DNA of 54,818 nucleotides from assembly GCA_029262155.1 (NCBI GenBank), contig JAJCZW010000004.1, positions 1 to 54,818 of the forward strand. Reading direction: 5' to 3'. This document shows, one piece after another, positions 47,120-54,818 of this stretch. Origin of the DNA: Gemmatimonadota bacterium. GTDB lineage: Bacteria > Gemmatimonadota > Gemmatimonadetes > Gemmatimonadales > GWC2-71-9. The first letter of the stretch is position 1, and every line of letters starts with the position of its first letter. Made by a program: the position numbers and the translations under genes. The notes under the pieces were generated by a model, which did no database searches, had not been told where the DNA came from, and was given only the letters and a program-made list of their open reading frames with translations.

Positions 47120-48235
47120 TCACCGTCGGAGGACGGCGTGGATCAGCGTTTCGACATCATCCTCGTCGCGGCTCACGCCAAGGATCCTGGTGCCATTGAC
47201 TTCGAGCAGAGTGAATCGCTCCGGCAGCGTCACGGTCTCCGGTGGCGAACGGTCGGGCCGCAGGACAACCCACCGCGGGGGGTCCCCCGGTTCCACGATC
47301 ACTTCGACCCAGACATCCCCCTCTGCGGTGGAGAGTAGGCGGCCAAAGAGCGGCATATGTTCCGGGGCTTCGGCCAGTGAGGACGGATCCAGATGGAGTC
47401 GGGCCCTTCTCTCCTCGACCACGGCATTCTCCGCTGGCGTCGCTTTCCGCGGTTCAAGCGGCACGGGTATGCTGTCCAGGACGACTCCGGCAGCCGAGAA
47501 CAGGCGGATCTCCGGGGTGTCGGAGAACCCGACCCAGACGCCGTGCCCCCTTCGGTCGACTGTGGCCTGGAGACGAGGGCCGTGGGGGTGCACGCTCGTC
47601 GTTGGTCCCCGGGAGTTTCTCCCCACAGTCATGTCGAATAGCGGGAACCTCCCGATCACTTCTGTCATGCTGTCACCTGGGACATAGGCTACTACCAAGG
47701 TCGAGTCGCGATACGTGGAAGTCGTCCTTTGTCCGTCGGGTACAGGGACCGTCTTCCCGACAATGACGAGAGCCCCCGATTCGAACTCCCCGACTACATC
47801 GGCACTCCACGAAGCGGCCGCGGTTTCCACCTGGGCCGAGCGAACCATTTGTCCATCCTCACCGACCCAGGTCACCCGGCGCAGGCTCCGGTCATAGGCC
47901 CATGCCGTTCCGTTCAGTGCAATACCGAACGCGGTGAGTTCGCGGAATTCCCCTGGTCCCGACCCAATGGTTCCAGACCAAGTCAGCGATGCCCCGGTCG
48001 AGGAGAAGAAATGCACCCGCGCCGCCTTGTGATCAGCCACCCCGATAACCCCGCTCGGAAAGGTGACGGCGCCAAGGATCTGCTCGAACCCCTGTCCGTC
48101 GGCGCCGCGTTCATGAGCCCACAGGATCTCGATTGTGGACTCCCTCCCCGGATCTGTTGGCGCGGGCAACTCCTGCCTGCACCCGGCGATCATGTATCCG
48201 AGTAGTGTGGCTACGGCGACCTTGATCATCCACAT
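47120..48235 (-). CDS. 6-bladed beta-propeller family lipoprotein (paralog 2)
   Basis: MWMIKVAVATLLGYMIAGC lipobox. GSGPGEF motif. Repeated blade-like segments. Confidence 0.8.
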   Translation of the reverse strand: MWMIKVAVATLLGYMIAGCRQELPAPTDPGRESTIEILWAHERGADGQGFEQILGAVTFPSGVIGVADHKAARVHFFSSTGASLTWSGTIGSGPGEFRELTAFGIALNGTAWAYDRSLRRVTWVGEDGQMVRSAQVETAAASWSADVVGEFESGALVIVGKTVPVPDGQRTTSTYRDSTLVVAYVPGDSMTEVIGRFPLFDMTVGRNSRGPTTSVHPHGPRLQATVDRRGHGVWVGFSDTPEIRLFSAAGVVLDSIPVPLEPRKATPAENAVVEERRARLHLDPSSLAEAPEHMPLFGRLLSTAEGDVWVEVIVEPGDPPRWVVLRPDRSPPETVTLPERFTLLEVNGTRILGVSRDEDDVETLIHAVLRR

Positions 48236-48618: not shown

Positions 48619-49791
48619 TTAGATCTCGGAGACACCCTCCAGCGACAGCCACACTAGCACTCGCCTGGTCCTACTACCACCTGCGGTAGCAAGGAGCAAT
48701 CGTCCCTTATCACTTGTGACAATCCTATCGGTTGCTGGCAGATAGAAACGACCGATTAGCGTTCCCGACAGTGCCATGGCAACCCACCGAACCGAATCGG
48801 ATTCCGCCTCGATGGACTCACGAATGAGTACGACATCGGTGTCAGTGCAATGGAGGTCGGTGATTGCTGGGTGGTTCGCTGGGGCAGAAGCCGCCGCCTT
48901 CTCTAGCTCCCTTTGGGCCGCCTCTTGTAGTGGTGGAAGTGCCTTGCCCCGGCCCATCTGTTGCGTCCGCCCACTTCTTCGCTCCATCTCCCGGCTGACA
49001 TCCCTGCTCGTAACCGCCCGTCCTGCCCAAGGCCCCCGTATGACGCGCTTCGTCCCAGGTGCATTAGCTGGAAAGACGATGAGGGTGAATTGCGCCTCCG
49101 GCGCCAGTATGACCGTACCATCACGGCATGCCGTCCACGTTGGTCGCGCCTGGAAGAACCTGGGAATCGGGCGATAGCGGGCGTTTGTCGTTGCTGCGGG
49201 AACCGTCCACGAAGCAAGAGTGTCTGGCAAGGTGTCTGAACCACGCAGACGAAGTGCCGCAGTCAAGACAGGGCTACCGAGCTGGGAGCTCGGTGCGTGC
49301 GTGAAAGCAAGCAGGCCGGGTTCGATTGACATTATCCCGACAATGTCAGGTGGCACCTCGAGTGCCCACATGCCAGTGGCTCTTCCGGTGCTGTCAAATA
49401 CCAGCACCTTGGACCCTACGAGATCAACAAGGAACACCGCTCCATCAGGGAAGGCCCCCAAAGTCAGAGCCGATTCAAACTCGTTGCCTCCATGCCCTAC
49501 TACCCCGAAGCTCATGGCGCCGGAGCCGTTCGGCTTGCTACGACGCAATCCGTCGTATACCGAGGCAAGGACAAGCTTCCCATCCGTGGCCATTGCGGCC
49601 ACCGTGTTCGGACTTACCTCGCATCCGGACGACTCGGGTGGACGAAGACACAAAGTGTCACGGCGAACGGCAAGTAGCCGTACGTTCAAGTACTCCGCTC
49701 GGTTGATTCTCGTGGGCTGGATGTCGCTGTTAGTATCAGTTGATCTTCCGGAACAACTGAGGACGGCACACAGAACCAGCACGCCGATCAT
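48619..49791 (-). CDS. 6-bladed beta-propeller family lipoprotein (paralog 3)
   Basis: MIGVLVLCAVLSCSG lipobox (ORF start 49830 also possible). GHGGNEF motif. Confidence 0.8.
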   Translation of the reverse strand: MIGVLVLCAVLSCSGRSTDTNSDIQPTRINRAEYLNVRLLAVRRDTLCLRPPESSGCEVSPNTVAAMATDGKLVLASVYDGLRRSKPNGSGAMSFGVVGHGGNEFESALTLGAFPDGAVFLVDLVGSKVLVFDSTGRATGMWALEVPPDIVGIMSIEPGLLAFTHAPSSQLGSPVLTAALRLRGSDTLPDTLASWTVPAATTNARYRPIPRFFQARPTWTACRDGTVILAPEAQFTLIVFPANAPGTKRVIRGPWAGRAVTSRDVSREMERRSGRTQQMGRGKALPPLQEAAQRELEKAAASAPANHPAITDLHCTDTDVVLIRESIEAESDSVRWVAMALSGTLIGRFYLPATDRIVTSDKGRLLLATAGGSRTRRVLVWLSLEGVSEI

Positions 49792-49974
49792 ACGGTTTGC
49801 AGTCCGAGAGGAGCAGCAGGGACTGATCATCGACTGTTCAACAGTCCAGTTGGCGAGCTGCCGGCAGTCGCGAGATCAATGGCAGTGTAGACCTTCAGGG
49901 GGTCTACCAAGCCATACATGCTCATTAGCTTTGCAACATTTCGAACACCAAGGGCAGATACCACCACACGGCCA

Positions 49975-50684: not shown

Positions 50685-50713
50685 TTGACAGTTACACTAG
50701 AATCTCACATATT
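50685..50713 (+). promoter_or_regulatory. possible promoter of the antitoxin-Doc operon
   Basis: TTGACA (50685-50690), 17-nt spacer, CATATT (50708-50713), in an AT-richer stretch ~55 nt upstream of ATG 50770. Confidence 0.3.
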
Positions 50714-50769
50714 TGGCAGTGTTACTTGAATGGTATTTCATAGAAGGCATTGCATTTAATGAGGTTGCC

Positions 50770-50997
50770 ATGATTACGAGTCGTACTCGAATCCAAGGAG
50801 CTTCGGTAGTCACAACCCTGCCGGCCGAAGTGGCCCGACGCCTGGCGATCAGCCCTGGGCAGGAGCTGGAGTGGATCGAGGACGGAATGGGAGGTTTCCG
50901 GGTTATACCGCATGCCACGGAGACGGCCGAAGCCTTGGACGCCCACAGCCGCATCATGGCGGAATATGACGGCGTCTTCCGTGTATTGGCCAGGTGA
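50770..50997 (+). CDS. AbrB/MazE/SpoVT-type antitoxin
   Basis: MITSRTRIQGASVVTTLPAEVARRLAISPGQELEWIEDG (swapped-hairpin barrel pattern). GAGG upstream. 4-nt overlap with doc. Confidence 0.8.
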   Translation: MITSRTRIQGASVVTTLPAEVARRLAISPGQELEWIEDGMGGFRVIPHATETAEALDAHSRIMAEYDGVFRVLAR

Positions 50998-51395
50998 GCG
51001 AACGGGCGGAGCCACGGTGGCTCACCGAACCCATTCTCTTGAACCTCCACGCCCAGCAGATAGAGCGATACGGCGGAGCGCATGGCATTCTGGATTCGAA
51101 TGTGGTCCTCTCTGCCTTGGCTCGCCCCATCAACCGGTGGGTCGATGATGCTGATGCGGACCTTGCCGATTTGGCGGCGGCTTACCTGGTGGGTTTCGCT
51201 CGAGCTCAAGGATTCGCCGATGGGAACAAGCGCACGGGCTTGGCATGCGCGCTCGTGTTTCTTTCGATTAACAGTGCTTCGCTTCATGTGCCAGGAAAGG
51301 AACTTTACGACTTGACAATGGCTGTGGCGAACAACCAAGCCGATGACGCCACCGTGGCGGACTACTTTCGTACGCGGCGATCGCAATCGACGTAA
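50994..51395 (+). CDS. doc: death-on-curing (Doc) family Fic-fold toxin, with Gln at the motif His position
   Basis: Aligns by eye to P1 Doc: LHAQQIERYGG, then AAYLVGFARAQGFADGNKRTGLACALVFL versus ATYLVATARGHIFNDANKRTALNSALLFL. Confidence 0.85.
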   Translation: MSERAEPRWLTEPILLNLHAQQIERYGGAHGILDSNVVLSALARPINRWVDDADADLADLAAAYLVGFARAQGFADGNKRTGLACALVFLSINSASLHVPGKELYDLTMAVANNQADDATVADYFRTRRSQST

Positions 51396-51424
51396 GAAGC
51401 CCGCCGGTCGGGGGCAGCCGCTTG

Positions 51425-51640
51425 TTAGCCCGGGGACGACGGTCCCCTCCCGGAATTAGCGCCCCGCACACGATTCACGAGCGTCGCAACTCCGTAGCTG
51501 AGTAGGAGTAGCACAGCCCACCAGTACTGCCAAAGAACTTCAGCGAGGCTGCGGTTGCCCTCGCGGGCCCATGAAACAACGTCGTAGAGGAACCCGAGCG
51601 TCGAAATCCCGAGAATGATGACAAGCAGTTTCTTCCGCAT
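51425..51640 (-). CDS. hypothetical small 2-TM membrane protein
   Basis: MRKKLLVIILGISTLGFLY...WWAVLLLLSYGVATLV. No homology call possible. Confidence 0.4.
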   Translation of the reverse strand: MRKKLLVIILGISTLGFLYDVVSWAREGNRSLAEVLWQYWWAVLLLLSYGVATLVNRVRGANSGRGPSSPG

Positions 51641-51759
51641 ATCTGTTGTCCTCCCATGTCGATATCTCTCTCAGGCTAACGCCCACGATCAGCGGCGGCG
51701 CGCAGCGCCGTACGCTGCATGCTGTTGTTAGCCCGCGGCCCGTTTTGCTTGGTCGCTCA

Positions 51760-53067
51760 TCACAGGCTGGTCCAACGCCGTCGTAGTACCGCGCCTCGCT
51801 GGCTGTCCAGCATAGCCAGTGCCGCACGGTTCACGTCCAAGGAGTCCGTGAAGTCTCGGTTCGCGCCGAACACGCCATTCGATCCCAGGGTGCCTAGCAA
51901 GTCCTCGGCGTCGTTGAGCGTCTGCTCGTGTACCTGCCGCGCCTCGTCATAGCTCGCCGCATGCAGCGCTTGTGCCTGGCCGCGAAGAGCGTGCAGGTAG
52001 TGGCGGAAGGCGGCCTGCTCAGAGAACCGCACGGACGACGGCTGCACTCCGCTGAACAACTGGTCAGCGTAGCCCCCATCGAATTCGGACGGGGGCTTCA
52101 TGAGATCGAGCACGCCTTGTTCGTAGGCCACGTCGAGGAATGGGATCTTGTACTCCGAGAGAGCCTGCGGGCAGTAGTACCAAGTCGCTCTGCGCCTGAT
52201 CTCCTCTTCGTACTCCTTGTTAAACTTGTCGGGCGGAAACGACCGTACGTTCATCCACGTCCCGGAGCAGATGGCATTCGCTCTGGCGACATGCGCGGCG
52301 AGCATCTGATGGTTGCAATAGCCGAGGATTACCTGCGCGCCCGCCAGGCGCAGTCCAGCCGTCAGGTCGAGAACGTGCGCGAGCCAGATGGCATCCTGGA
52401 CAAGGTACTCGCCATTCGGATGCTCGCAGACGATGTAGTACCCATCGGCTCCCCACCGGGTGACCGCTTCGAGCAAGGTGGTGACCTGCTCGCGGCTTCG
52501 GGCGGTGTCCGCTCCAAGGGCGAGCGTAGCGAACACCTTGGTGCCGCCAGCCAGGTCGCGTGCAGTTGTCAAGAACGACTCATGATGCGCGAGCCAGAGA
52601 TCATCAACGGGATTGGCAAGGATCCCGGGGAGAATGATGGCCTCAGTGCCAAGGTCCTTGTTCAGCTCGACGATCTGCCTAACAAGGACCACCATCTCCG
52701 GGCCTTGGAAGAACGACCCGGAGGCGAAGTCGGCTGGCCAGAAACCGTGAGAGCAGAGTCGGTCGTGGTCGGCATGCGGGACGTAGAACTGCGGGTCAAG
52801 CAGGGTCTTCCCGCCTTCGATTCCAGCTACGTCGGCCGCCAAGCTACGCAGTTGTTTGTCGTTCAGGTCGCGGGGGCTCAGTACGACGGTGCCCCCGCCC
52901 CACTCCGTGAGTAGGTGGCGGCAGTGCTCCATCATCCCGAACCCGAACTGGAGGTGAACCTCCATCATCGTTCTCCCGCCGTGAAGGCGCAGGGGCATTG
53001 GCCAGCGCCGCAGGAACATGCCGCCAGGAACATGCAGCTCCATGTCATTGGACTCCCTCCAGGTCAC
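51760..53067 (-). CDS. hypothetical protein (~427-435 aa), third gene of the kinase cassette; alternating strand/helix pattern suggests an alpha/beta (possibly TIM-barrel-like) fold plus a helical C-terminal domain
   Basis: Long clean ORF. The alternative start ATG 53043 lies 1 nt after the kinase stop. Strand-like segments: VHLQFGFG, TVVLSPRDL, KTLLDPQFY, EAIILPGIL, KVFATLAL, YYIVCEHP, AQVILGYCNHQ, ANAICSGTWMN. No catalytic motif recognised. Confidence 0.7.
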   Translation of the reverse strand: MTWRESNDMELHVPGGMFLRRWPMPLRLHGGRTMMEVHLQFGFGMMEHCRHLLTEWGGGTVVLSPRDLNDKQLRSLAADVAGIEGGKTLLDPQFYVPHADHDRLCSHGFWPADFASGSFFQGPEMVVLVRQIVELNKDLGTEAIILPGILANPVDDLWLAHHESFLTTARDLAGGTKVFATLALGADTARSREQVTTLLEAVTRWGADGYYIVCEHPNGEYLVQDAIWLAHVLDLTAGLRLAGAQVILGYCNHQMLAAHVARANAICSGTWMNVRSFPPDKFNKEYEEEIRRRATWYYCPQALSEYKIPFLDVAYEQGVLDLMKPPSEFDGGYADQLFSGVQPSSVRFSEQAAFRHYLHALRGQAQALHAASYDEARQVHEQTLNDAEDLLGTLGSNGVFGANRDFTDSLDVNRAALAMLDSQRGAVLRRRWTSL

Positions 53068-53938
53068 ATAGTTCTTTGATCCATTCGTGGGCCTCTCGCG
53101 CAGTCTGGCACCGATGGACGGGATTCGGCTGTGCCAGCGTAGCCACTAGGTCAGCGAAGCCGTCCGGCAGAGGGCGCCCGAGGCGCGGAAGCTGCTGCGT
53201 CGATGCTCTCCTAATGATCTCGAAGCGATCTCGCGCGCCTTCGACGTGAGGATTGCCGCCAGTGGCAGCTTCGTAGAGGGTCACGCCAAGCGCGAAGAGG
53301 TCGGCGCGGGCGTCGATGTCGGGCTTGTCGTTCCGGCACTGCTCGGCGGGAGCGTAGCCGATGGTGCCGCAGCCTCCAGGTGCCACGGTCGCGGTCAGGG
53401 ACTCGAGATCGAGGTGTCTGGCAACACCAAAGTCGATGAGCCAGAACTCGCTCTGCGGGTCCACGATGATATTCGCTGGCTTCACGTCGCGGTGAACGAT
53501 GCTCACGGCTTCCGCGGCGACCAACGTCTCGGAGACGTGCAGTGCAAGTCGCAGGAGTTCGTGGTGTGCGAGCGTGCCAGCTCGGATTCGAGCGCTCAGG
53601 ACTTCCCCGGGAATCCGCTGCTCACGAAACCAGACGATCGTCCCAGTGTCGCCGGTGAGCTGACCGTGCTCGAAAATGCGCGGCATCCGGGGAGCCTGGA
53701 CCTTGGTCGCTGCCTCCAGCTCCCTCTCCGTTCGCGCCGGATCCGTCCCTGGGTGCATGAGCTTGATCACCACCTCACCGTCATTCGCATGCGTCGCGGT
53801 GAACACTTGCTTTTGACCGCCTGCGGCAAGCGCCTGGAGATCGGTGAGGTTCGGGAACTGGTGTACGAGCCAGCCGGGGTCTACCTGGGAGTGGTTGGGC
53901 ATGATCCTCGGTCGCTGCGGTTTCTGGAGACGCGCCAT
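53045..53938 (-). CDS. Hanks-type Ser/Thr protein kinase, kinase domain only
   Basis: Gly loop LAAGGQKQVF, VVIKLM (Lys), HRDVKPANII, DFGVAR, GTIGYAPAEQ, DLFALGVTLYE. Alternative start ATG 53902. Confidence 0.85.
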   Translation of the reverse strand: MARLQKPQRPRIMPNHSQVDPGWLVHQFPNLTDLQALAAGGQKQVFTATHANDGEVVIKLMHPGTDPARTERELEAATKVQAPRMPRIFEHGQLTGDTGTIVWFREQRIPGEVLSARIRAGTLAHHELLRLALHVSETLVAAEAVSIVHRDVKPANIIVDPQSEFWLIDFGVARHLDLESLTATVAPGGCGTIGYAPAEQCRNDKPDIDARADLFALGVTLYEAATGGNPHVEGARDRFEIIRRASTQQLPRLGRPLPDGFADLVATLAQPNPVHRCQTAREAHEWIKELCDLEGVQ

Positions 53939-54654
53939 GCAAGGTCATTCACGACCCACGACGCATAGGAGCGCGGCAGGGGCGCGGTGGAAGCTCCCCA
54001 CTCCCGAATTCCATCTTGCTCCGGGGAGAGCACGCCGATGCCGAATCGTTGCGCATCTCGCATCTGATCCTCGGACACCCGAGGCACAAGCACGTACGAT
54101 TTCGATGCGAACCAGGTGTTCAGCCGCGCTTGATTGAGCACGTCTGTCCACTTTCCGATCTTCGCCTCGACAGCGATGATCTTGGTAGCTGCGAAGGCGC
54201 GCTCTAAAGCACACGGGAACCAAGCCCGGCCGGCCGGCCGAACGAGCCCGGCGCCGTGCAGCCGCTCGGTCGACGACCGCGCGAAGCGGGAGCCGAAATG
54301 ATCCTCAAGTTCGGCGTGGGCGGCTCTACGACGCTGGAACACGTAGTGCATGAGCCGGAGGTCGTCCGGTACGAGTGCTAGGCGCGGTTCACCCCAGTCG
54401 GCGGTGCGGGCGGCGCGCCACACCACAATGACGAGGTCGGGGAACCCGGACTCGAGGCCGAGCTCGCGGAGCACCGTCACGCGGCTGTCCGGAGCATGGA
54501 CGAGCGGCATGGCGGGGATGAAGCGCTCCACGAGTTCCTGCTCGGGCCCCGGCAGAGTCCTTCGAAAGACTACACCCTCCGGCGCAGAGTCCCGGTCCAC
54601 GATCGTCGGGGTCACGGTGGAAGTCACGTTGGTCAGTGCCTTCTGTTCAGTCAC
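53881..54654 (-). CDS. hypothetical protein with PD-(D/E)xK nuclease-like motifs and a winged-helix-like insert; first gene of the kinase cassette
   Basis: GTG start 54654. ...LRELGLESGFPDLVIVVW... and ...KIIAVEAKIGKW... fit E / PD / ExK spacing. The intervening LRLMHYVFQRRRAAHAELEDHFGSRFARSSTERLHGAGLV looks like a wHTH. Confidence 0.6.
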   Translation of the reverse strand: MTEQKALTNVTSTVTPTIVDRDSAPEGVVFRRTLPGPEQELVERFIPAMPLVHAPDSRVTVLRELGLESGFPDLVIVVWRAARTADWGEPRLALVPDDLRLMHYVFQRRRAAHAELEDHFGSRFARSSTERLHGAGLVRPAGRAWFPCALERAFAATKIIAVEAKIGKWTDVLNQARLNTWFASKSYVLVPRVSEDQMRDAQRFGIGVLSPEQDGIREWGASTAPLPRSYASWVVNDLAWRVSRNRSDRGSCPTTPR

Positions 54655-54818
54655 GCGTCCTCGGTTCCTTGGTCCGGCTAACGATTCTGCGCTTGACCCG
54701 CGGGCGCGCTGTGCGCCAGCGGGGCGGCGCCATCAATAGAGAAGAAAGATGAAGCGCGCCAGCCCGCCGCGCAAATAGCGCGCGCCCGTCGGCGTCCATG
54801 CGCCTGTTAGACCGCGCG

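Follow-up and report, generated by a model that had tools for sequence, protein, structure and literature searches.

A mobile three-gene operon for a PD-(D/E)xK-like protein, a Hanks-type kinase and a TIM-barrel protein on an integron cassette, and its possible role in biological conflict

Background

Close to one end of a contig of 54818 bp, the whole of which was analysed and is called the window here, lie three tightly packed genes on the same strand, referred to below as the trio: gene 1, a protein kinase gene (gene 2) and gene 3. The locus raises the question of whether these genes form a unit and, if so, whether that unit is a known system or a new one, possibly acting in phage defence as the original prediction proposed. 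Several defence systems offer points of comparison. Restriction endonuclease (REase) and kinase modules are paired in PglW and DndF (PMC12839542), PD-T4-6 provides defence through a Ser/Thr kinase encoded by one gene (Vassallo et al. 2022; PMC9519451), and phage-defence systems have been shown on integron cassettes (bioRxiv 10.1101/2024.07.02.601719).

Results

Layout and conservation of the trio

Three intact minus-strand ORFs were found within 51760-54654, as predicted (Table 1). The overlap of gene 1 with the kinase gene is 58 nt long, and shrinks to 22 nt with M13 as the kinase start, in agreement with an expected overlap of at least 22 nt. For the junction with gene 3 the original prediction had left two options, a kinase stop 1 nt from gene 3 or 23 nt inside it. 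The ATG at 53043 lies 1 nt past the kinase stop and is preceded by the Shine-Dalgarno sequence GGGAGGGAG. In 13 loci, some of them only ~60% identical in gene 3, this motif shows no or almost no variation. Because both this motif and the ATG are conserved, we favour the 1-nt spacing and have dropped the 23-nt overlap.

Table 1 Features of the locus in window coordinates
Feature	Coordinates	Strand	Remarks
Probable attC of preceding cassette	54676..54812	-	R'' GTCTAAC 54806-54812; R' GTTAGCC 54676-54682
Gene 1	53881-54654	-	ORF, 257 aa, GTG start
Kinase (gene 2)	53045-53938	-	ORF, 297 aa
Gene 3, longest ORF	51760-53067	-	435 aa
Gene 3, supported reading	51760-53043	-	ATG at 53043, 427 aa
attC of trio cassette	51668..51740	-	core 51674-51733; R'' GGCTAAC, R' GTTAGCC
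Next cassette, 71-aa ORF	51425..51640	-	TAA stop inside R''-like GGCTAAC 51424-51430
Doc/Fic toxin	50994-51395	+	Pfam Fic 8.6e-14; TIGR01550 DOC_P1 1.2e-15
AbrB/MazE-type antitoxin	50713-50997	+	Pfam MazE_antitoxin 1.2e-7

The three genes make up a single self-contained operon that is horizontally mobile and co-inherited across Bacteria and Archaea, its reading frames overlapping or spaced by 1 nt. By tblastn, the order gene 1-kinase-gene 3 on a single strand was seen in all loci with enough upstream flank (~52 of 62 non-redundant loci), which bears out the expected co-occurrence of gene 3 with the kinase and the nuclease-like gene. The hosts span more than 12 bacterial phyla, together with Bacillus plasmids and haloarchaea. 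Among 1074 neighbourhood ORFs of the trio loci the only recurring families were the three themselves; neither a conserved fourth gene nor a linked transporter or pathway partner was found in this set. The haloarchaeal version has an extra, overlapping fourth gene for a metallophosphoesterase. When compared at equal distance, gene 1 shares 33-43% identity, the kinase 42-50% and gene 3 45-55%, so that gene 1 is the fastest-evolving partner and gene 3 the most conserved. This gradient fits a layout of sensor, transducer and effector.

As to the surroundings, the AbrB-Doc toxin-antitoxin (TA) pair described beside the trio was recovered by its MazE_antitoxin, Fic and DOC_P1 matches, and the IS elements mentioned with it were confirmed as an IS3 OrfA remnant and an IS30 C-terminal remnant. 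The TA pair runs in the opposite orientation to the trio and is context, outside the cassette described below. The claim of a typical defence-island context did not hold. Elsewhere the window carries housekeeping genes (trehalose synthesis, MgtC, GntR), and apart from the TA pair no defence-related gene was found in it. Nor did the expected enrichment beside defence genes appear elsewhere: the 268 neighbours of the homologs are mostly housekeeping genes and only ~12 are of TA, Abi or restriction-modification (RM) type. Neighbour types at trio loci include AbiEi/AbiEii, Gp49, RM methylases, nSTAND3, integrases and transposases, and the association of the trio with defence islands is weak.

An integron gene cassette

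In this clade the trio is, judging from its boundaries, a 3.0-kb integron gene cassette, with the G|TT near 54682, in the upstream attC, at one end and the attC at 51674-51733 at the other. Short motifs shared by the two flanks had been noticed in the original prediction; they do exist, and their identity is now that of integron attC sites. The downstream site scored 75.3 bits (E 7e-15) with the covariance model, a value obtained for a site that belonged to the training set of that model. In its centroid fold R'' pairs with R', followed by an inner stem, and the hairpin has internal bulges. Compensatory changes were found at 3 pairs of the stem among 7 attC sites. The site is kept downstream of the trio in four sister loci (L004, L007, L008 and L009), in all of which the covariance model also found further same-strand attCs from outside its training set.

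The upstream site was found by a simple detector of R''/R' plus stem and is predicted to form a long imperfect hairpin; its covariance-model score is weak (18 bits, E 0.65). It is probably the attC of the preceding cassette, with its R' as the upstream boundary of the trio cassette. DNA homology to the sister loci begins at 54682-54691, adjoining this R', and full attCs lie upstream of the start of the gene 1 tblastn match by 22 nt in L004 and 57 nt in L009. The nucleotide identity of 80-86% to loci labelled Planctomycetota, Chromatiales and Thioalkalivibrio is limited to 54691-51671. Mobility as an integron cassette would explain such identity between loci labelled as different phyla. L004 carries an integron integrase, IntI (TIGR02249, 472 bits, cutoff 265), an attC array (8215, 11225, 11861, 12610) and an MqsA-type cassette. 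The association with IntI is thus seen in L004; our contig ends 6 nt past the upstream attC, too near to show IntI. The attC and the ORFs share one orientation, and the first start codon follows R' by ~21 nt, which leaves no space for a promoter.

The trio cassette is followed by another with a 71-aa ORF, whose attC is truncated after ~35 nt by the Doc gene. The product looks like a two-helix membrane protein; it had no family match and is not conserved beside the trio at other loci.

The trio cassette resembles integron cassettes, including the phage-defence cassettes (BRiCs) of mobile and sedentary integrons, in its 3' attC, its R''/R' cores, its bulged hairpin and its boundary at the preceding R'. 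The usual integron cassette, however, is a single-ORF element and far smaller, whereas the trio cassette has three genes and 3.0 kb. Most members of the trio family sit outside integrons.

The three proteins

Gene 1 putatively encodes a PD-(D/E)xK-fold protein with a winged-helix insert at about residues 81-153, which may be a nuclease or a DNA sensor. The predicted E...PD...ExK arrangement and wHTH-like insert are upheld: the motifs GFPDLVIVVW and AVEAKIGKW are present, their D and ExK residues are essentially invariant, and the AF2 model (pLDDT 89.7, pTM 0.85) has the fitting order alpha-beta-beta-[insert]-beta-alpha-beta (H37-48, E57-63, E74-80, insert, E156-164, H169-179, E185-189). When the PD-(D/E)xK core was checked in this model, D73 opened beta2, E163-A-K165 lay in beta3 and E64 was the upstream Glu. 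E64, D73, E163, K165 and Q175 are each kept in 47-50 of 51 sequences, Bacillus and archaeal ones included. The Foldseek matches were weak and non-significant (best E 5e-3), with NucS/EndoMS, VC1899, Can2 and Ecl18kI at 0.03-0.7, along with MarR-type wHTH proteins. No family match was obtained in PADLOC, Pfam, NCBIfam or PHROGs, and all 256 homologs are annotated as hypothetical.

Gene 2 is, by its motifs, a stand-alone and catalytically complete Hanks-type Ser/Thr protein kinase, as the original prediction had it. It matches Pfam Pkinase (1.2e-22, 81 bits, cutoff 31.7), and K59, E73, H149-R-D151, N156, D169-F-G and the A-P-x-E segment are at least 90% conserved in 49 trio kinases. The nearest defence-model profiles are PD-T4-6 (PADLOC, 1.6e-41), mad6 (PADLOC, 7.5e-31) and MkoA.

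Gene 3 is modelled with confidence (AF2 pLDDT 84.8, pTM 0.87) as a (beta/alpha)8 TIM barrel with a C-terminal three-helix bundle, and would represent an undescribed enzyme family. The label 'unassignable' given earlier to this protein is therefore right as far as library families go, the family being absent from Pfam, NCBIfam, PADLOC and PHROGs, but not for the fold. The family is large, with more than 1000 homologs and 887 clusters at 50% identity. No homolog was found in 50,697 phage records, which speaks neither for nor against a conflict role. Family-wide invariants are Q7, D58, P114 and G236, located at beta-strand ends, and a pocket on the C-terminal face of the barrel is strictly conserved (Q7, S31-P32, D58-P59-Q60, G236, R242). 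The barrel core begins at 52968 and the 26-aa basic N-terminal extension at 53043. Many gene callers start the gene at the internal ATG at 52968 (402 aa).

The best Foldseek PDB match of gene 3 was the tRNA-guanine transglycosylase (TGT) structure 9hn7_A (E 5.8e-6, TM 0.46), and 2pwu (TM 0.50), 2ash and 6rkt also ranked high. In BFVD, viral queuine tRNA-ribosyltransferase-like proteins took ranks 2, 9 and 49. Like TGT/DpdA, gene 3 is a (beta/alpha)8 barrel with an extra subdomain at the C-terminus, and the sizes are similar. However, this resemblance is weak (TM 0.46-0.50) and without sequence support, and generic barrels (aldolases, pyruvate kinase, carboxyltransferases) nearly equal the TGT chains, with only 9hn7_A standing clear. 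With 7 diverse members there was no Pfam TGT match at E <=10, a gene 3 profile built from 105 sequences reached a probability of 0.4% when compared with E. coli Tgt by hhalign, and an HMM search of the PDB with gene 3 had no match. The zinc-binding CxCxxC...H motif is missing (the sequence, read directly, has no CxC), and D58 is the sole family-wide invariant acidic residue, compared to the catalytic aspartate pair of TGT. The DpdA crystal structure was not among the top 50 fold matches. On the lack of profile homology, the missing zinc motif and the single invariant acidic residue, we rejected membership in the TGT/DpdA family by sequence.

Comparison with known systems

The original prediction placed the trio in no named system. 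This stands for genes 1 and 3, which have no entry in any library searched, and no paper naming the trio was found by literature search; it does not stand for the kinase taken alone, which matches the PADLOC models PD-T4-6 and mad6. One likeness is to PglW (BREX type 2/Pgl) and a subset of DndF, in which a NERD-type REase is fused to Ser/Thr/Tyr kinase modules and, with wHTH modules, REase and kinase are coupled as in the trio (PMC12839542). In the trio, unlike these proteins, the REase-fold protein and the kinase are encoded by separate overlapping genes, there is no NERD Pfam match and no pseudokinase, and the third partner is a TIM barrel. BREX type 2 itself was rejected (kinase against NCBIfam PglW 50 bits, cutoff 990; no PglX or PglZ in the window or the 62 loci, and no BrxC or Dnd partners). 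MADS was rejected likewise (kinase against NCBIfam MAD6 97 bits, cutoff 460), with mad1-8 partners found neither in the window nor in the 62 loci, and so was TerY-P, whose TerY vWA and PP2C partners were missing from the same set.

Several of the PD-T4-6 models in PADLOC match the trio kinase from end to end, the best at 1.6e-41, and a PADLOC run might label the kinase PD-T4-6. However, PD-T4-6 and Stk2 are single-gene systems, whereas the trio kinase is always linked to genes 1 and 3 (~52 loci). These constant flanks rule against the trio being PD-T4-6, and the HMM match reflects the general kinase domain. In CapK-CapS and KKP, a kinase and a DNA-binding partner switch an adjacent effector upon a DNA signal (PMC13373217; PMC11341870), which resembles the scheme that we propose below. 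They differ from the trio in that CapK belongs to the anti-sigma-factor-type (GHKL) kinases, CapS is a STAS protein and KKP consists of two kinases and a phosphatase; neither system has homology to genes 1 or 3.

Discussion

With moderate confidence, we infer that the trio is a conflict system switched by phosphorylation, that is, one that defends against phages or MGEs in the manner of abortive infection. The gene 1 product would detect DNA that is foreign or damaged, might also cleave it, and would thereby turn on the kinase. The kinase would phosphorylate, and thereby switch on, the TIM-barrel effector encoded by gene 3, which would act on a phosphate-bearing nucleic acid or nucleotide; base exchange on tRNA or DNA is the reaction of the enzymes closest to it in structure. 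The overlapping metallophosphoesterase of haloarchaea would reset or antagonise the switch. The signalling direction and the identity of the kinase substrate are purely conjectural. We favour the conflict reading because of the synteny, the mobility, the intact active sites, the conservation gradient, the affinity of the kinase to defence models, the precedents, some of the neighbours and the archaeal phosphoesterase, although the weak defence-island association, the mostly housekeeping neighbours, the low TM values of the TGT resemblance and the non-significant fold matches of gene 1 count against it. A far-reaching version, in which the trio is a so far unrecognised pan-prokaryotic immune system, spread between phyla by integrons as an unusually large cassette, with a nuclease-fold DNA sensor, a Hanks kinase and a TIM-barrel effector of a new family, remotely similar in shape to base-exchanging transglycosylases, that kills or arrests the infected cell through base removal or exchange on tRNA, DNA or nucleotides, seems to us quite doubtful.

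An alternative is an addiction module, with either the nuclease or the TIM-barrel enzyme as a toxin restrained by phosphorylation or by the wHTH protein. Such a module would persist because its loss kills the cell, like the TA cassettes of chromosomal integrons. The trio is selfish, mobile and patchy in distribution, sits in an integron array beside a Doc TA pair here and with an MqsA-type cassette in L004, and sedentary integrons are known to carry TA cassettes (PMC13108822). However, it has 3 kb and three conserved enzymes without a small labile antitoxin, and outside this clade it is found as a solitary insertion amid housekeeping genes, with no integron. We consider this explanation unlikely; it overlaps with abortive infection and is not fully separable from the conflict reading.

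The fold of gene 3 could also suggest an RM-like modification of nucleic acid, in which a TGT-like barrel swaps or excises a base of DNA or tRNA, the PD-(D/E)xK protein cleaves targets that either lack or carry the modification, and the kinase balances the two. TGT gave the best fold match in two independent libraries (PDB and BFVD), DpdA, a TGT homolog, carries out the modification in Dpd systems (PMC10164549; PMC12839542), and gene 1 combines an intact nuclease site with a DNA-binding insert. The negative profile comparisons, the missing zinc motif and the absence of the DpdA structure from the top 50 fold matches make this rather improbable, as does the fact that neither preQ0/queuosine genes nor DpdB/DpdC were found nearby. 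Least probable in our view is an ordinary accessory signalling or metabolic operon, with a wHTH regulator and a kinase controlling a metabolic TIM-barrel enzyme as a niche trait on an integron. TIM barrels are mainly metabolic enzymes, aldolase, pyruvate kinase and carboxyltransferase have E-values near those of most TGT chains, housekeeping genes are common among the neighbours, and most integron cassettes have unknown, non-defence functions. Yet no transporter or pathway partner is linked to the trio, gene 1 retains a nuclease active site and is not a plain regulator, and the kinase is nearest to defence-associated models. In addition, the trio is fixed across haloarchaea, Bacillus, Planctomycetota and sulfate reducers, which have very different lifestyles.

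Two of the three trio proteins are sizeable families without an entry in any profile library tested. If the trio is a defence system, as we favour, it would bring a new effector enzyme and a clear three-part sensor/kinase/effector design to the few known kinase-based immune systems. It is also a concrete case in which an integron cassette has carried several genes together from one phylum to another, and lends support to the recent idea that integrons act as mobile repositories for conflict systems. The proposed conflict role is directly testable since cultured carriers exist, namely Thioalkalivibrio denitrificans ALJD, Ralstonia sp. A12, Desulfosarcina widdelii PP31, Nannocystis punicea, Citreicoccus inhibens, Bacillus mycoides SIN2.2 (on a plasmid) and Halobacterium jilantaiense.

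Gene layout and starts

ORF calling recovers the three minus-strand genes at the positions of the original prediction (the coordinates of all features are collected in the table below), and the reading frames of gene 1 and the kinase overlap. For gene 3, the ATG at 53043 sits 1 nt past the kinase stop. Because the Shine-Dalgarno sequence in front of it, GGGAGGGAG, varies little or not at all over 13 loci, some of them distant, we consider 53043 the most likely start, with a predicted product of 427 aa. The barrel proper starts at a second ATG, 52968, which is chosen by many gene callers and leads to a 402-aa product; both ATGs carry Shine-Dalgarno-like sequences. The 26 codons from the kinase stop to the barrel start are conserved in length and frame. 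They open with M-E/D-L-Y/F-V/L-H-x-G-M-F, which resembles the N-terminus of the barrel itself (MELHLQFGFGMM), and continue as a variable Arg-rich linker. This stretch might represent a regulatory leader or an alternative start, or have arisen by partial duplication. The window and the contig are coextensive, which leaves no genes to be read farther upstream of gene 1, and L072, another assembly of this locus, is shorter.

Coordinates of the trio genes and associated features. L numbers denote loci carrying trio homologs.
Feature	Position	Strand	Remarks
Gene 1	53881-54654	minus	ORF, 257 aa
Gene 2, kinase	53045-53938	minus	ORF, 297 aa
Gene 3	51760-53067	minus	longest ORF, 435 aa
26-codon stretch	52969-53043	minus	kinase stop to barrel start
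Hairpin 3' of trio	51733-51674		GGCTAAC-N46-GTTAGCC
71-aa ORF	51424-51640		own cassette; TAA stop within R''-like GGCTAAC
371-aa ORF	47120-48235	minus	lipoprotein-like N-terminus
403-aa ORF	48619-49830	minus	lipoprotein-like N-terminus
attCs outside training set	L004 11861, 12610; L009 1668, 7084; L007 277; L008 11971		covariance model
Complete integron	L004:6414-12689		intI oriented as cassettes
Radical-SAM/SPASM protein	L009:1740-3347		cassette directly 5' of trio
Variant hairpin	L012:5598-5671		3' of trio
Haloarchaeal metallophosphoesterase	L069:7132-7821; L073:7239-7925; L074:7210-7896		after gene 3

Distribution and linkage

A word-indexed search gave more than 1000 homologs of gene 3, and an exhaustive one 887 clusters at 50% identity; the full-length homologs are nearly all about 400 aa, and none is named. 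Gene 1 has 256 homologs, every one annotated as hypothetical. A scan using one genome per species returned 61 loci, with hosts among Planctomycetota, Acidobacteriota, Myxococcota, Desulfobacterota, Nitrospira, Gamma- and Betaproteobacteria, Armatimonadota, Zixibacteria, Latescibacterota, Eisenbacteria, Obscuribacterales and others. The order gene 1-kinase-gene 3 on a single strand was seen by tblastn in all loci with sufficient upstream flank (about 52 of 62), and the co-occurrence of the three families that had been proposed as a check is thereby found. All-against-all clustering of 1074 neighbourhood ORFs gave only the three trio families as recurring ones, the next family being present in 5 loci. 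Judged from these sequences, the three genes appear obligately linked, translationally coupled and horizontally mobile.

The trio is also carried on plasmids of Bacillus mycoides and B. bombysepticus, where gene 3 has about 29% identity and hhalign links the local homolog of gene 1 to the gene 1 profile with a probability of 98%. In haloarchaea (Natribaculum, Halobacterium, Halorubrum and further genera) a metallophosphoesterase gene (Metallophos_2, 3.7e-27; 228-229 aa) invariably comes next after gene 3; the two share 4 nt in L073, and in L074 and L069 the metallophosphoesterase gene begins 7-22 nt past gene 3. Bacterial trios lack this gene, which may encode a phosphatase or phosphodiesterase partner built into the archaeal version; a conserved fourth gene was seen in haloarchaea only. 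The small ORFs found upstream, with 177, 179 and 125 aa, had been considered as another fourth gene and are mutually unrelated by clustering. No gene 3 homolog was found in phage records. Some trio copies are decayed (L015, L057, L064 and L070): an insertion of about 1.6 kb separates gene 1 from a truncated kinase in L015, and one of about 1.9 kb separates the kinase from a truncated gene 3 in L057; the gene 3 copy of the B. bombysepticus plasmid is broken into two ORFs.

Integron cassette

The window and its closest relatives, which carry the labels Planctomycetota, Chromatiales, Thioalkalivibrio or unclassified, share 80-86% nucleotide identity that is confined to 54691-51671. The sequence downstream of gene 3 folds as a hairpin with internal bulges, kept with compensatory substitutions in L004, L007, L008 and L009. 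Upstream, homology starts at a GTTAGCC about 21 nt ahead of the gene 1 start, which pairs with a GTCTAAC located 130 nt farther up. The core consensus of integron attC sites is RYYYAAC (R'') and GTTRRRY (R'), and we take the GGCTAAC/GTTAGCC and GTCTAAC/GTTAGCC motifs to be such cores. The short shared motifs on both flanks had originally been read as a sign of a defence island; they are present and are identified here as integron attC sites.

A covariance model trained on seven such sites recovers them and finds extra attCs on the same strand, one cassette apart, in L004, L007, L008 and L009. In L004 an integron integrase (TIGR02249, 8.3e-142, 472 bits vs cutoff 265) lies one cassette 5' of the trio. 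With a crude motif detector the 54.8-kb window yields 5 sites, of which 3 lie at the trio end; over 1.04 Mb of loci it yields 0.04 sites per kb. Since hairpin fold energies compared to shuffles are not significant in this GC-rich DNA (z-scores -0.6 to -2.2), the attC call rests on motifs, position, covariation, arrays and the integrase. The attC of the 71-aa ORF, which apparently encodes a small two-helix membrane protein, extends for about 35 nt before the Doc gene interrupts it; that gene runs the opposite way and ends at 51395. The trio end of the window belongs to a cassette array that has decayed, and by its sequence features the trio is identified as a 3.0-kb integron cassette, one that leaves no space for a promoter of its own. 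Integron capture would explain the spread of the window's clade across phyla. At the distant loci L013-L067 neither the motif detector nor the covariance model found attC-like flanks, which suggests that integron carriage is clade-specific and not family-wide.

The cassettes of the L004 integron encode a 177-aa unknown protein, the trio, a 187-aa 8xMP-domain protein, and a 43-aa ORF with a 96-aa HTH (MqsA-like) protein. The radical-SAM/SPASM protein of L009 has weak likeness to prokaryotic viperins (35.9 bits vs cutoff 180), among many RiPP maturases. The L012 hairpin has GAC/GTC (CCTGAC...GTCAGG) replacing the AAC/GTT cores and might represent an attC in variant or degenerate form (18 bits with the covariance model).

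Gene 1 and the kinase

The AF2 model of gene 1 is confident (pLDDT 89.7, pTM 0.85) and has the predicted alpha-beta-beta-beta-alpha-beta order of PD-(D/E)xK nucleases. D73 opens the second strand, E163-A-K165 lies in the third, and between them is a helical insert of about 70 residues that matches MarR/Lrp-type winged-helix proteins. Matches of the whole fold (NucS/EndoMS, Can2, VC1899, Ecl18kI) point in the right direction and are not significant. E64, D73, E163, K165 and Q175 are conserved in 47-50 of 51 sequences, Bacillus and archaeal ones included, and for this reason the putative nuclease-type site looks catalytically competent. Model topology and conservation thus agree with the nuclease arrangement and winged-helix insert initially proposed.

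Gene 2 is a bare Hanks kinase domain (Pfam Pkinase, 1.2e-22), as the original prediction had it. The kinase Lys K59, alphaC Glu E73, HRD D151, N156, DFG D169 and the APE segment are conserved across 49 trio kinases, whose activation loop bears conserved Thr residues, and the protein is probably an active kinase. Against PADLOC it matches the PD-T4-6 models (1.6e-41) and mad6 (7.5e-31), but scores far under the equivalog cutoffs of both MAD6 and PglW.

Gene 3

Gene 3 had been called unassignable, which no longer holds: the AF2 model is confident (pLDDT 84.8, pTM 0.87), with a predicted eight-stranded beta/alpha barrel that leads into a beta-hairpin and then a three-helix bundle. Foldseek against the PDB ranks tRNA-guanine transglycosylases (TGT) first (QTRT1/2 9hn7_A, E 5.8e-6; 2ash, 6rkt and 2pwu at TM 0.45-0.50), with generic barrels close behind every TGT match except the top one. 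Against viral models, queuine tRNA-ribosyltransferase-like proteins are at ranks 2, 9 and 49. We retain this likeness of fold and reject TGT membership, because a 105-sequence gene 3 profile gives an hhalign probability of 0.4% with E. coli Tgt; the TGT zinc motif is also absent. Seven diverse members have no Pfam match, and an HMM search of the PDB was empty. Q7, D58, P114 and G236 are invariant across bacteria and archaea and S31-P32, P59-Q60, R242 and F244 nearly so; in the model all are at the C-terminal ends of barrel strands, consistent with a conserved enzyme pocket. Going by what is generally known of TIM barrels, the Gly that follows strand 8 and the conserved Arg residues suggest a phosphate-bearing substrate.

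Genomic context

The AbrB/MazE-Doc pair downstream of the trio, and the IS3 OrfA and IS30 C-terminal remnants beyond it, were all identified as expected. The typical defence-island context was not: the majority of the 268 immediate neighbours of homologs are housekeeping genes, e.g. EPSP synthase, CPSase, MutL, HisG and fumarase. The families listed also include DDE and rve transposases, tyrosine integrases, Gp49/HigB-like toxins, Uma2, AbiEi (at least 3) and AbiEii (at least 2), with single RM methylases, DUF4391, nSTAND3, bpMoxR and YhcG; the defence share is a rough count from the 25 commonest families per scan. With transposases and integrases among mainly housekeeping neighbours, the trio is a small mobile insertion, frequently at variable or MGE-rich spots, and the defence-island signal is weak.

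Proposed role

At equal evolutionary distance, identity is 33-43% for gene 1, 42-50% for the kinase and 45-55% for gene 3, so that gene 1 is the fastest-diverging partner and gene 3 the slowest. Usually a sensor diverges fastest and an effector slowest, and the order fits this pattern. The trio may be pictured as a conflict module switched by phosphorylation, in which gene 1 would be the sensor, the kinase the transducer and gene 3 the effector; the archaeal phosphoesterase would fit a switch that can be reversed. A role of the defence or abortive-infection type has in our estimate about an even chance. The same linked and mobile genes could instead constitute an addiction module, which is unlikely. 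The fold of gene 3 would suit a nucleic-acid modification system around a TGT-like enzyme, a reading that, with the profile comparison to Tgt as it is, seems quite improbable. It is very doubtful that the trio is an ordinary accessory operon of signalling or metabolism.

Precedents exist for an REase fold coupled to a kinase, namely PglW and DndF (PMC12839542), and for integron cassettes that carry defence systems (bioRxiv 10.1101/2024.07.02.601719). CapK/CapS had a promising title, but consists of a GHKL kinase and a STAS protein and is unrelated. Genes 1 and 3 match nothing in Pfam, NCBIfam, PADLOC or PHROGs, and their Bacillus, archaeal and divergent members likewise have no profile-library match at E<=10. 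Against PDB sequences, the profiles A1, A2 and the broad A8 gave only noise. The trio is unnamed in these libraries and no description was found in the literature searched, in agreement with the original view that it is not recognisable as any named defence system. Conflict systems with kinases, like defence cassettes borne by integrons, belong to known kinds; what is new are the partner families and the architecture.

Remaining features of the window

Elsewhere the window has genes for trehalose synthesis, for MgtC and for a GntR regulator. The large 371- and 403-aa ORFs, for which no Pfam family was found and which may be mutually paralogous, lie between this housekeeping part and the IS remnants.
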